This document shows, piece by piece, positions 35,427-62,473 of a stretch of 64,000 nt of DNA. Where the stretch lies: sequence record OR352945.1; one strand, written 5' to 3'. Source of the DNA: Escherichia phage AV115. The notes under the pieces were generated by a model. That model had not been told where the DNA came from, ran no database searches, and saw only the letters and a program-made list of their open reading frames with translations. Each line of letters starts with the position of its first letter. Positions within the stretch are counted from its first letter, which is position 1. A program made the translations under genes and the position numbers.

Positions 35427-36059
35427 TCACAGTACGTTAGTTACAAGGGTAATGATTTCTTTGGACACATTAGGGAAGTCAATGTAAGTATATTTACCAC
35501 CGATCTTAATCTTAACATCATTTTCAAGAGAAGTAAACAGCTTTGATTCAGTTTCTGACATGTTGTATGCAAAGATTCTAAGAGCGCCATCTCGTCGAAT
35601 TTCAATTTGGCGAATGCCTAGAACTCGTTTAGCGAATCGAACTTCCAAGTTACTACGGTTTTCACCAATTTCTTTAACTTCAACTTTATCTTTAATATTT
35701 TCAAAAACAAAGTTTGCTAATTCATGCATTTCAGGAGTAACTCCACGTGCTTTTCTAGTGTTACGTTTCTGAAGAAGTTCTGGAGCATTTTCTTGGGCAA
35801 AGAGGTCTGCAGCTTTTTGGATAATATCCATTGCTTCGCCTGTTGCTATAAGTCCATCACCAGATTTTTCGACTAAACCTTTCTTAATCAATACACCAAT
35901 GTTAGAGTTAACAACCGATGCATTGTATTCCGCTTCCAGGGCTTCACGGACATTGGCAGCAGTGGTGAAGTTGTTCTTAATGATATAAACCATTATTGCA
36001 GCAGTTTTTTCATTCAGAGCGTTTTCAGAAGCTTTGATGATGTAAGTAACTTTAGACAT
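35427..36059 (-). CDS. motA: middle transcription activator MotA
   Basis: 210 aa; N-terminal half near-identical to recalled T4 MotA. Confidence 0.85.
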   Translation of the reverse strand: MSKVTYIIKASENALNEKTAAIMVYIIKNNFTTAANVREALEAEYNASVVNSNIGVLIKKGLVEKSGDGLIATGEAMDIIQKAADLFAQENAPELLQKRNTRKARGVTPEMHELANFVFENIKDKVEVKEIGENRSNLEVRFAKRVLGIRQIEIRRDGALRIFAYNMSETESKLFTSLENDVKIKIGGKYTYIDFPNVSKEIITLVTNVL

Positions 36060-36094
36060 TTTATTTCTCCAATTTGGTTGTTTTGTTTTGATAG

Positions 36095-36128
36095 GTCTAT
36101 AATATCATGTTTGAAGCATATGTAAACT
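36095..36128 (-). promoter_or_regulatory. T4-type early promoter for motA
   Basis: Minus strand GTTTAC, 17 nt, TATTAT. Confidence 0.55.
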
Positions 36129-36152
36129 GTTTTGTGAGAAAAATGCACAAAA

Positions 36153-36168
36153 GGGAGCCGAAGCTCCC
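36153..36168 (-). terminator. UUCG hairpin downstream of gene 52
   Basis: GGGAGC-UUCG-GCUCCC on minus transcript. Confidence 0.45.
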
Positions 36169-36244
36169 TAATCATGTTTGTCCAACCAATACAGCCAAAT
36201 CACTAGTGCAGCTATTGCGCCGAGAAATCCTAAGGCTATGGCAC

Positions 36245-37570
36245 TCAAAGTGCCTCCAAGTCTTTAGTGTACTCTGTCACAACATCAGTAGACTTCCAAT
36301 ACTCATTTTCTTCTTTCTTAGCTTTAGCTTCTTCTGCTAGTTTACGTGCTTCATCGGAAGTGATATGGAAGATGTTAAGACCTACCAGTTTATCGACATG
36401 TTCTTTATACATTTCGATTTGTGCGAGCTCTTCAGTCAAAGCTTTACGAGTCTTGCCCTGAATCACAATTTCGCCGTTGATAACTTTTTTGATGAAGTGT
36501 GCCTTAGCAAAAGCCAGTTTAAATGCTTTTTCAGATTCAAGGATTTTGTTGTCAATACGTTTCTGAACGTAAGTCTTACGGACTTCAACAAAATCTTTGA
36601 TTAAGTCCACTACGTTATCGTAGACAGCTAATTTACCCTTTTCATTAATCACTGTGATGTTTTGTGAACGACGTTCGATGAGACTAAAATCTTTCATGAT
36701 TTTTTCATGACGTAGCTCTTCATCATCAGGAAGCGAGTACTCTTTACGGAACTTCACCTTAAACCCAAAGCCGTGTTCACCGCAATCATCTTCCCATGAG
36801 ATTAGACCTTTGTCTTCCAACGGGTCAAGAACCTTACTCACATACGTTTCACGGTCGAATTTATATGGGATTTCAGTTATCTGCATTTGAGTGCGAGATG
36901 TGAACTTATATGTTCCGCGAATCTCATAACGCCCATCAACTTCATGTACTTCACCACGGAATTCCGGGAATTCAACTTTTGGCTTAGTGACATTTTTACC
37001 TTGAAGAGCTTGTAATACAGCCTTTTTGACTGATTTAAAACTATGAGGCAGAATATTTGTTGCGTAACCGGTTGCAATACCAGAGACGCCATTCAAAAGA
37101 ACTGTCGGAATAATAGGAAGATAGAATTTTGGCGGAATGTGTTCTTTATCTTCATGAGCTGGAGCATATTCAGTATCTTTATATACGTTATAGAAATTTT
37201 TACTTACACGAGCAAAAATATAACGAGATGCTGCAGCTTTTTGGACTGTTCTAGAACCAAAGTTGCCTTGGCCATCTAACAGTGGATAGTTGTTGTTCCA
37301 TGTGTTAGCCATTAATGCACCTGCATCTTGTGCGGAAGATTCACCATGGTGATAACCTAAATCTGCAACACCGCCTGCAATTGACGCAAGTTTATGAAAT
37401 TTTTCTTTATTACCACGAGCCAAATCTAACGCACGATGAACCACAAAACGTTGAACCGGCTTAAATCCATCAATCATGTTTGGGATTGCACGGTTTTCAA
37501 CGGTGTACATCGCATATGCTAAGGCTTCGTTATCAATAATACTTTTTAGATTACGAGAATTCAATTGCAT
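36245..37570 (-). CDS. 52: DNA topoisomerase II medium subunit gp52
   Basis: 441 aa; GyrA-like N-terminal region with catalytic-Tyr context. Confidence 0.9.
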   Translation of the reverse strand: MQLNSRNLKSIIDNEALAYAMYTVENRAIPNMIDGFKPVQRFVVHRALDLARGNKEKFHKLASIAGGVADLGYHHGESSAQDAGALMANTWNNNYPLLDGQGNFGSRTVQKAAASRYIFARVSKNFYNVYKDTEYAPAHEDKEHIPPKFYLPIIPTVLLNGVSGIATGYATNILPHSFKSVKKAVLQALQGKNVTKPKVEFPEFRGEVHEVDGRYEIRGTYKFTSRTQMQITEIPYKFDRETYVSKVLDPLEDKGLISWEDDCGEHGFGFKVKFRKEYSLPDDEELRHEKIMKDFSLIERRSQNITVINEKGKLAVYDNVVDLIKDFVEVRKTYVQKRIDNKILESEKAFKLAFAKAHFIKKVINGEIVIQGKTRKALTEELAQIEMYKEHVDKLVGLNIFHITSDEARKLAEEAKAKKEENEYWKSTDVVTEYTKDLEAL

Positions 37571-37574
37571 ATTT

Positions 37575-37715
37575 TCACCATATTAATGAACGAATATCCA
37601 TTATAACATCTGAAATGAAAAGCACTACTTGGATTAGTCCAAACATCACACCATAGTACAGAACCGTAAGCAACAACAAGAGCCCGAAGGCTCCTGCTAA
37701 GATTTTCTTAATCAT
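37575..37715 (-). CDS. small hydrophobic peptide (46 aa)
   Basis: ATG 37713-37715 overlaps upstream stop (TAATG); predicted single TM helix. Confidence 0.3.
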   Translation of the reverse strand: MIKKILAGAFGLLLLLTVLYYGVMFGLIQVVLFISDVIMDIRSLIW

Positions 37716-37861
37716 TACTCGCCTTTTAACACGTTAAGAAGAGCTAAGACCGCTAAGGTACCTTGTGATACGGCCTGTTGAAATACTGTTGTTTCGCCTG
37801 TAACTAAAGTGCTAACGAATAAAAATGTCCAACACAGCAATGCAACAATCCATGCTATCAT
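37715..37861 (-). CDS. small hydrophobic peptide (48 aa)
   Basis: ATG 37859-37861 with GAGGT RBS; predicted TM helix. Confidence 0.35.
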   Translation of the reverse strand: MIAWIVALLCWTFLFVSTLVTGETTVFQQAVSQGTLAVLALLNVLKGE

Positions 37862-37913
37862 TTTAATTACCTCAAAAATAAATTAAAGGCCTATTAAGCT
37901 AGGCCTATATAAA

Positions 37914-38360
37914 TTAGTAACTCTGCAGAATGAATTTGAAATTATCTGCCAGAAGACGGTTCATTTCAGTGAGTGTTTGATATTCTGATGTATGGTTGCG
38001 AGTGAATGCCAGAGCCAATTGTCCTTTACCGTAACCAGTAGTCAGGGGTTTCATGTTCTTAGCTGCAACAAAGATTACATCATATTCAATATTGTTAGTG
38101 CCCATAGTACGGCCTAGTTGCGAACGGCCTTGACGAATATGAGAAAGAATTGCATCCAACCCTTGTTTAGAACGTTGACGTCCTACAAAGAATCGTGCTG
38201 CTACTTGTCGCCAATCAGATGAACCTTTAACAAAGAAGTAAAAACCTTCACGAGAACGAAACTCTTTAGAAACTTCGGAACCATATTCACCATTACGAAC
38301 TACTGCAACAACTTCACCACCAACTGCCAGAAGGTCTTTACGAGTTAAATATTTGGACAT
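37914..38360 (-). CDS. ndd: nucleoid disruption protein Ndd
   Basis: 148 aa; C-terminal half near-identical to recalled T4 Ndd. Confidence 0.85.
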
Positions 38361-38436
38361 ACTAATTTCCTCAATTGATTAATGTTTTTGTAATCCATGA
38401 GAGCATTATACTCTGCTCTCAAGAGTTTGTACAATT

Positions 38437-38637
38437 TTATTCGGTTATATCAGAACGTTCAAAAAGCTCTTCAACAGTTAAACATTCAGTGTCATCTTCA
38501 ATAAAGAATCGAGTCCAACACGTTGGGGCGATGCAGTTGTGAGTTTGTCCGGCTATAGAAGCTACACGAATAAGTTGCTGACCATTATTCAGGACAAATT
38601 TTTCACCAATTTCAACATCTTTAAAAAGCTTAGCCAT
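38437..38637 (-). CDS. hypothetical protein (66 aa)
   Basis: ORF downstream of early promoter at 38660-38696. Confidence 0.4.
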   Translation of the reverse strand: MAKLFKDVEIGEKFVLNNGQQLIRVASIAGQTHNCIAPTCWTRFFIEDDTECLTVEELFERSDITE

Positions 38638-62468: not shown

Positions 62469-62473
62469 TTTTA

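Follow-up and report, generated by a model that had tools for sequence, protein, structure and literature searches.

Between the genes ndd and 52 of Escherichia phage AV115, a Mosigvirus and thus an RB69-like relative of T4, two small open reading frames (ORFs) lie on the minus strand of a 64,000-nucleotide (nt) stretch of DNA (sequence record OR352945.1; hereafter the window). They had been proposed in an initial annotation made from the sequence alone. As described below, they very probably correspond, as Mosigvirus orthologues, to the early genes ac (here 48 amino acids, aa) and 52.1 (46 aa) of T4: conserved, overlapping coding frames for hydrophobic helical proteins, with 52.1 carrying in addition an RNA hairpin and the middle promoter P52. 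The genes ac and 52.1 are already known, with decades-old entries for T4 and RB69.

Read along the minus strand, the locus consists of ndd, a 52-nt spacer, the 48-aa ORF, the 46-aa ORF, 4 bases and gene 52 (Table 1), so that the 48-aa ORF comes first in transcription. The corresponding order in T4 is ndd, stp, ac, 52.1, 52, and the synteny of the window, ndd-(stp)-ac-52.1-52, is as in T4. The two ORFs are arranged head to tail as had been reported, with TAA (37717..37715) and ATG (37715..37713) having one base in common. The GAGGT ribosome-binding site ascribed to the second ORF, counted in plus-strand order, is the one that precedes the 48-aa ORF, and the described hairpin GAGCC-UUCG-GGCUC was located within the 46-aa ORF (37693..37680, codons 8-12). 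Since chance alone yields many short ORFs in such AT-rich DNA (the ORF listing holds dozens of spurious ORFs of 25-79 aa in the same 4.5 kb), the case for real genes rests on comparison with other phages. The closest listed genomes, e.g. SSE1 and APCEc01, are 97.7-98.7% identical to window positions 37400..38000, and 151 Mosigvirus-type records match this segment at 95% or more. Both frames are conserved in related phages, the point on which the initial annotation had made its proposal depend. It had also described them as unannotated by its ORF track. The genes are not new: both are annotated in RB69 (NC_004928) and APCEc01 (NC_029091), although some records omit one of them (the NBG1 record lacks 52.1).

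Identification of the 52.1 and ac orthologues

The 46-aa protein matched the Pfam family DUF7396 (PF24129) from end to end, residues 1-46 aligning with model positions 1-46 (4.5e-23, 81.6 bits, cut-off 27), and it also falls into phrog_3595. It is 72% identical to T4 gp52.1 (NP_049876), a protein of the same length that belongs to the same two families and likewise precedes gene 52 with P52 elements embedded in its gene. The two differ in residues 7-19 (AGAFGLLLLLTVL versus GYSLALAALLVAL), and the window gene forms one C(UUCG)G stem-loop where T4 has two smaller hairpins. The ORF is labelled 'hypothetical protein' in APCEc01 and gp52.1 in RB69. A single transmembrane (TM) helix had been predicted for each ORF. 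For gp52.1 this agrees with a continuous hydrophobic stretch over residues 5-35 and with the AlphaFold2 model, in which residues 2-45 form one helix (predicted local distance difference test, pLDDT, 96.7). YYG and VLFISD are invariant, and G22xxxG26 is a motif of the GxxxG type for helix packing. The frame was found by tblastn in 724 phage records. When 1.84 billion representative proteins were searched with the profile, only 9 clusters were returned, all of one short type; the family is narrow and confined to T4-type phages. Between genera, synonymous differences (pS) reached 0.67-0.77, which is near saturation, against 0.19-0.32 for non-synonymous differences (pN), giving pN/pS of 0.04-0.3; 52.1 is under strong purifying selection. 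Two metagenome homologues, P0136 and P0140, carry 40-49 extra N-terminal residues. These were considered as natural fusions with the upstream partner, an interpretation that was discarded, since the extensions are non-hydrophobic and resemble over-called starts in the 52.1 frame.

The 48-aa protein matched phrog_2501 over residues 1-48 (E = 4.7e-21), a family that is also matched by Ac of T4 (2.2e-25), RB33 and the Klebsiella phage Roth20. The ORF is labelled 'acridine resistance protein' in APCEc01 (RefSeq) and ac in RB69. With T4 Ac (51 aa, NP_049877, PHROG 2501) it shares 34% identity over the core (BLASTP E = 1e-7), the size, an N-terminal TM helix, a two-helix prediction, and a position downstream of ndd/stp, directly upstream of 52.1 and overlapping it. 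The likeness further includes the core C-W...T...S/T-V-F-x-Q-A-x-x-Q-G, the last residue of which (G34 in the window) corresponds to T4 G38; the substitution G38R confers acriflavine resistance on T4 (bioRxiv 10.1101/2025.06.30.662393). In the other direction, the window protein is nearer to the RB33/TH57 allele type (~56%) than to T4, and it ends in KGE with a 1-nt overlap while T4 Ac ends in ND with an 8-nt overlap; window ac is moreover preceded by a hairpin and T4 ac by stp. Ac begins with a TM helix and ends with a short hydrophobic helix, the polar core TGETTVFQQAVSQG between them being conserved; W11, T18, V26, Q29, A30, Q33 and G34 are invariant in alignment A6. The prediction of a single TM helix thus stands for one TM-length segment (~1-21), to which, after a polar linker, a short hydrophobic segment (35-45) has to be added. 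AlphaFold2 modelled helices at 2-21 and 24-46 (pLDDT 76.5, from an alignment of only 3 sequences), in agreement with the two-helix ESMfold picture of T4 Ac (bioRxiv 10.1101/2025.06.30.662393). Searches of the PDB sequences with phmmer gave no match for gp52.1 and chance matches only for Ac (E > 1).

The Ac frame was found by tblastn in 272 phage records. With pN/pS of 0.4-0.9, ac is less constrained than 52.1, although its conserved core is kept. Window ac differs from APCEc01 ac by 5 substitutions in 146 nt, all within 37812-37858, four of which are non-synonymous and lie in the N-terminal TM helix (I2V, V6I, T12S, S17N). This rate exceeds those of gene 52 (0.9 per 100 nt) and 52.1 (1.4), the counts being too few for testing. 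T4 and RB33 are near-identical in ndd, stp, 52.1 and gene 52 while their ac genes are only ~30-40% identical, and the junctions are sharp, one at the start of ac and the other precisely on the 52.1 ATG. Within this one genus, ac therefore looks like an exchanged cassette.

The initial annotation had tentatively related the two ORFs to T4 ac and stp and had described both of these as small membrane-protein genes. The relation to ac holds for the 48-aa ORF, whereas the 46-aa ORF is 52.1 and not stp. T4 Stp, the activator of the PrrC anticodon nuclease, is encoded in the ndd-to-52 interval of T4 and is a soluble polar, non-hydrophobic peptide of 26 aa; it resembles neither ORF and was rejected as an identity for both. 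The stp gene is absent here: the ndd-ac spacer contains no ORF, and the best tblastn match in the whole window had E = 0.1. In its place lies a terminator-like hairpin (-11.4 kcal/mol, z = -1.7), annotated 'terminator' in NBG1. The loop of this spacer hairpin, GCTTAA (37899..37894), is the inverted form of the APCEc01/NBG1 loop TTAAGT between identical stems, which looks like a small hairpin-loop inversion.

Table 1. Genes and sequence elements of the ndd-52 interval in the window, listed in the direction of transcription
Feature	Position	Strand	Basis
ndd, upstream gene	38360..37914	minus	PF06591 at 2.7e-88
Terminator-like hairpin AGGCCUA-GCUUAA-UAGGCCU with U-rich tail, in the place of T4 stp	37906..37887	minus	terminator scan
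Shine-Dalgarno sequence of ac, GAGGT, 7 nt before its ATG	37873..37869	minus	read from the sequence
Probable ac orthologue, 48 aa	37861..37715	minus	ORF, phrog_2501, annotation in relatives
TAATG stop/start overlap of ac and 52.1	37717..37713	minus	read from the sequence
Probable 52.1 orthologue, 46 aa (DUF7396)	37715..37575	minus	PF24129, phrog_3595
C(UUCG)G hairpin, 11-bp stem with G-U pairs, 52.1 codons 6-14	37699..37674	minus	folding
Predicted P52 MotA box TGCTTTT (-31..-25), 52.1 codons 31-33	37624..37618	minus	geometry as T4 P52
Predicted P52 -10 element TATAAT, 12 nt past the MotA box	37605..37600	minus	geometry as T4 P52
Gene 52 (medium subunit of topoisomerase II), downstream neighbour and target of predicted P52	37570..36245	minus	PF00521 and phrog_551

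A predicted MotA-dependent middle promoter within 52.1

A MotA-dependent middle promoter P52 is listed for T4 (Hinton 2010, Table 1; PMC2988021). The table prints its start as 65227; the correct value is 165227, as is clear from the promoter geometry and because the entry stands between 153011 and 166702. Relative to 165227, TGCTTTT lies at -31..-25 and TATTAT at -12..-7 of the T4 sequence, within 52.1 codons 31-39, which is the canonical geometry of a MotA box. The same arrangement was found in the window, where the MotA box, the 12-nt spacer, the -10 element and the distance to the gene 52 ATG correspond to those of T4. It conforms to the pattern of MotA-dependent middle promoters, which is a TGCTTtA-like box centred at -30, a spacer of 11-13 nt and a sigma-70 -10 element (TATAAT in the window in place of the T4 TATTAT). 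The 5' end, which is mapped in T4, is predicted here near 37593, 23 nt ahead of the gene 52 ATG. The window also encodes motA (35427..36059). The 3' half of 52.1 thus contains a predicted version of the promoter P52 known from T4, which would drive gene 52.

Across 15 loci from five lineages, the P52 nucleotides hardly vary, even at third codon positions (with one third-position exception), while synonymous sites elsewhere in 52.1 are saturated. The extreme conservation of VLFISDVI can be explained by this double constraint, from protein and promoter. It could also be argued that the frame is untranslated and conserved merely as housing for P52 and the hairpin, given that VLFISDVI, the most conserved part of 52.1, falls exactly on the MotA box, the spacer and the -10 element, with nearly frozen third positions, and that an obvious Shine-Dalgarno sequence is absent by eye in several lineages. 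We regard this as extremely improbable. Outside the promoter, saturated synonymous change is accompanied by few replacements; the frame is open over 45-46 codons with an unchanged start/stop register in all lineages; the invariant YYG and the C-terminal S-L-x-W fall outside the promoter elements; and the stop/start overlap is retained in most loci despite replacement of the upstream gene. All of this argues for a translated 52.1.

Two further suggestions were dismissed. A second MotA-like site, seen by eye in 52.1 codons 13-22 (TGCTTAC/TGCTTTA with TATGGT/TATATT), has a spacer of 10 nt, outside the range of 11-13, and no promoter is mapped there. A link to oriA was also dropped, as the review places this origin near soc, away from gene 52.

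An RNA hairpin in the 5' third of 52.1

The hairpin in 52.1 folds with -16.5 kcal/mol (z = -5.3 against 200 dinucleotide-preserving shuffles). It starts ~16 nt past the ac stop codon (21 nt for its perfect core) and ~50 nt upstream of the P52 MotA box, and it is followed by the U-rich tail UUGUUGCUU. The stem is strong; the tail UUGUUGUUGCUU is interrupted by G residues, and a consensus terminator scan made no call, although several genome annotations, e.g. that of NBG1, label the hairpin 'terminator'. C(UUCG)G hairpins are a classical motif of T4 mRNAs (Tuerk et al. 1988, recounted in PMC4371310). In the window, 12 perfect ones occur on the minus strand, which is the transcribed one (the stems have their 5' ends at 62470, 56851, 47985, 44641, 40035, 37693, 36169, 27175, 18177, 9848, 1304 and 806) and once on the plus strand; UUCG-loop hairpins with stems of at least 4 bp number 15, with ~2 expected from shuffling. 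Seven of the 12 sit 3-7 nt past a stop codon. The 52.1 hairpin shares with the T4 mRNA hairpins the loop, the closing pair, the transcribed strand and the location shortly past a stop codon, and differs in lying inside conserved coding sequence, with its core 21 nt from the ac stop instead of the 3-7 nt of intergenic ones. This distance is about the closest possible that spares the 52.1 initiation region.

Five lineages retain a hairpin at this place in the 5' third of 52.1, with differing nucleotide and amino-acid sequences. The T4 type is GGGCUA-UUCAU-UAGCCC followed by a second stem, Klebsiella phages have GGAGCGGCU-UUAGU-AGCCGCUUU or GUGGCAGC-UAUU-GCUGCCGC, and other lineages UAGCCAUC-CUUGU-GAUGGCUA or GCGGCC-UUAGU-GGCCGC. 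We found no description of this positional conservation in the literature searched, and consider it a modest refinement. No Rfam family was matched at E <= 1 in 36000..38600.

Such structures might be functionless by-products of the Ala, Gly and Leu codons of a TM segment, as GCN, GGN and CUN codons easily give GC-rich palindromes, the stems are out of register between lineages, and the excess of structure is weak in L024, L025 and Roth20. Synonymous recoding with protein and local codon usage held fixed (45-nt windows, nine loci, five lineages) argues otherwise: in nine of nine loci only windows covering nt 1-63 exceeded the recoded stability (z -1.3 to -4.8), and z was near 0 over the remainder of the gene. 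Among 17 T4-group sequences, all 182 of 182 standard pairs are kept in both stems; seven additional pair types occur, and one double change, from C-G to U-A, costs two amino-acid replacements as well. This pairing level was matched by one of 500 shuffles. The strand bias of the UUCG loops points in the same direction, and a by-product is therefore considered unlikely. We conclude from these sequence comparisons that an RNA structure has probably been selected in the 5' third of 52.1, the hairpin being most likely a 3'-end or attenuator element that would close the early ndd-ac message before P52.

Probable coupling of 52.1 to a variable upstream gene

T4, RB33, TH57 and SP18 have GAGGA where the window has the GAGGT of ac. 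At the 52.1 ATG, a Shine-Dalgarno sequence is not obvious by eye in T4, RB33 and Roth20, and a partial one (AAGG..GAG) is present in the window. In most loci examined, with exceptions, the upstream gene overlaps 52.1 by 1, 4 or 8 nt. The overlap in T4, RB33, TH57 and Roth20 is AATGATTAA, which makes Asn-Asp the obligatory end of the upstream protein; the ac stop of Mosigvirus is shifted and gives TAATG. We infer that 52.1 is probably translated by termination-reinitiation.

In the IMG/VR and GenBank loci, 52.1 is always present and the coupled small hydrophobic gene upstream of it varies. The partner is Ac (phrog_2501) in Mosigvirus, T4, RB33, TH57 and Roth20. In many other loci it is a phrog_9347 protein of 46-55 aa that has a G-x-W-x-P turn; some Klebsiella phages have a 57-aa phrog_5941 protein, and two loci a 44-aa orphan (variable-partner loci L011, L016-L021, L023 and L026-L033, and the SP18 locus L007). 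A remote homology of Ac to its phrog_9347 replacements was tested by hhalign and rejected (probability 2%). In SP18 (GQ981382, 718-904) the phrog_9347-type gene is split into two overlapping frames that are unannotated there, and L018 and L019 have an intact 54-aa ORF at this place; the split is probably a frameshift or a sequencing error. The pattern of a constant 52.1 with a variable partner was not found described in the literature searched; it is a modest refinement and not a new kind of system. Coupling of ac and 52.1 may reflect economy of expression and not a specific complex of their products.

Proposed expression of the locus and action of Ac

In T4, ac and 52.1 belong to the early transcript class (PMC9697503, supplement). 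Going by T4 genetics and published work, early transcripts entering from the ndd side would read ac and 52.1. Ac would be translated from its own GAGGT, and ribosomes finishing ac would restart on 52.1, whose product would be a single-helix membrane protein with a GxxxG packing motif. The hairpin would either mark or stabilise the early ndd-ac message at its 3' end or attenuate read-through just before P52, and gene 52 would then rely mainly on transcription activated by MotA. By analogy with T4, Ac would enter the inner membrane, and the infected cell would accumulate acridines, through increased permeability (the classical route) or through hindered AcrAB-TolC efflux (proposed in a 2025 preprint). 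Acridine resistance would result when Ac is lost or when the conserved Gly of its Q-G motif (G34 here, G38 in T4) is mutated.

Acridine sensitivity was classically ascribed to a greater uptake of dye by infected cells. It was recently described that E. coli becomes more sensitive to acriflavine and ampicillin when it expresses T4 Ac, and that T4 lacking ac plates on acriflavine (bioRxiv 10.1101/2025.06.30.662393). A 2026 PNAS paper repeats the idea that Ac acts on AcrAB-TolC as an assumption.

Acridine sensitivity could itself be a side effect, with the true role of the genes in early remodelling of the host envelope, for example by stimulating phosphatidylglycerol synthesis, excluding other phages or countering host defence. 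This proposal, which overlaps with the one above, is possible but on balance doubtful. A purely drug-sensitising gene should be lost, and the pair is nevertheless kept across genera; unrelated small membrane proteins (phrog_2501, phrog_9347, phrog_5941) replace one another upstream of 52.1, as is typical of host-interaction genes. Four of the five substitutions between window and APCEc01 ac are non-synonymous, although with so few substitutions positive selection cannot be tested for. The T4 deletion sa-delta-9 (52.1, ac, stp, ndd..denB) abolishes the phage-induced stimulation of phosphatidylglycerol synthesis (PMC6071114). It spans more than 10 genes, however, and the lipid effect is not linked to ac or 52.1. 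Matches to defence or anti-defence families were sought in PHROGs and Pfam only.

Comparison of gp52.1 with AcrZ

Because of the efflux hypothesis for Ac, both proteins were compared with E. coli AcrZ (49 aa, PF10766), whose sequence was checked against PDB 4c48_C and scores 6.5e-30 with its own family. Ac showed no similarity to it in sequence and profile comparison. gp52.1 could be imagined as an AcrZ-like peptide that docks on host AcrB and, with Ac, blocks AcrAB-TolC efflux. Both are small single-helix inner-membrane peptides of similar size, and the preprint proposes AcrAB-TolC as the target of Ac. By hhalign, the 52.1 profile aligned with that of AcrZ without gaps (G22-V37 on G24-V39, G-x-x-x-G-L...S-x-V; P = 0.0018), and its score of 18.1 exceeded those of 100 column-shuffled AcrZ profiles (10.9 ± 2.3, maximum 17.6) and of four control pairs of small TM proteins (6.4-13.6). 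The hhalign probability was only 14.7%, however; BLASTP found no match, and PF10766 misses every 52.1 and Ac sequence even at E = 10. In Smith-Waterman comparisons the shuffle p was 0.33 for the window protein, 0.015 for T4 gp52.1 and 0.026 for Roth20 gp52.1. The invariant Pro16 kink and the N-terminal half of AcrZ are unmatched, and gp52.1 lacks its polar C-terminal tail. The match is carried by GxxxG, which is frequent in TM helices, the same segment weakly matching the glycophorin A TM model (E = 0.18), and the resemblance had been spotted by eye before testing. Homology to AcrZ is therefore not claimed, as the similarity is weak and probably reflects the GxxxG motif, and an AcrZ-like action of gp52.1 together with Ac is improbable. 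Equally speculative, and to be given very little credence, is an extended version of this idea, in which gp52.1 is the invariant half of a two-gene membrane cassette and docks on AcrB like AcrZ, while the swapped partner (Ac, phrog_9347, phrog_5941 or others) sets the outcome for the pump.

Weighing of the assignment

Several observations have to be set against the assignment to ac and 52.1 and the scheme of expression built on it. Identity of the window protein to T4 Ac is only 34%. Expression, membrane insertion and the acridine phenotype are transferred to this phage from T4 on the strength of sequence, and may differ here. The proposal that Ac may hinder AcrAB-TolC comes from a preprint (bioRxiv 10.1101/2025.06.30.662393). 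In the T4 group, nearly identical 52.1 genes stand behind different, unrelated partners, which argues against a partner-specific complex of Ac and gp52.1. As to the hairpin, its tail is a non-canonical U-tract, termination inside 52.1 would yield 52.1 messages without a stop codon, and the excess of structure is weak in L024 (p = 0.08-0.13) and Roth20 (p = 0.03-0.08). Family membership, synteny and conservation of both frames nonetheless make the orthology to ac and 52.1 very probable.

Beyond the interval, a 26-aa hydrophobic ORF with a TTG start (36168-36248, minus strand) occupies the place of T4 motA.1 and shares 4 nt with the end of gene 52. No Pfam match was obtained for it. One of the C(UUCG)G hairpins listed above (36169..36152) starts at its stop codon.

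Significance

The gene call itself carries little weight, being another copy of the known pair ac and 52.1. A modest value can be seen in the dense packing of the locus, where one gene of 141 nt would encode a membrane peptide, hold the promoter for an essential subunit of the topoisomerase and include an RNA hairpin under selection. That 52.1 is far better conserved than its neighbours can be attributed to these overlapping protein, promoter and hairpin signals. In most lineages 52.1 appears to depend on the ribosomes of the upstream gene, so that deletions of ac may be polar on 52.1, and expression of Ac alone may lack its neighbour. The constancy of 52.1 beside a varying partner, together with the coupling, could thus help with the question of how Ac acts. 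Were the improbable reading of the pair as an AcrB-directed cassette to be true, it would explain both the 60-year-old acridine-sensitivity phenotype and the poor action of Ac alone in trans.

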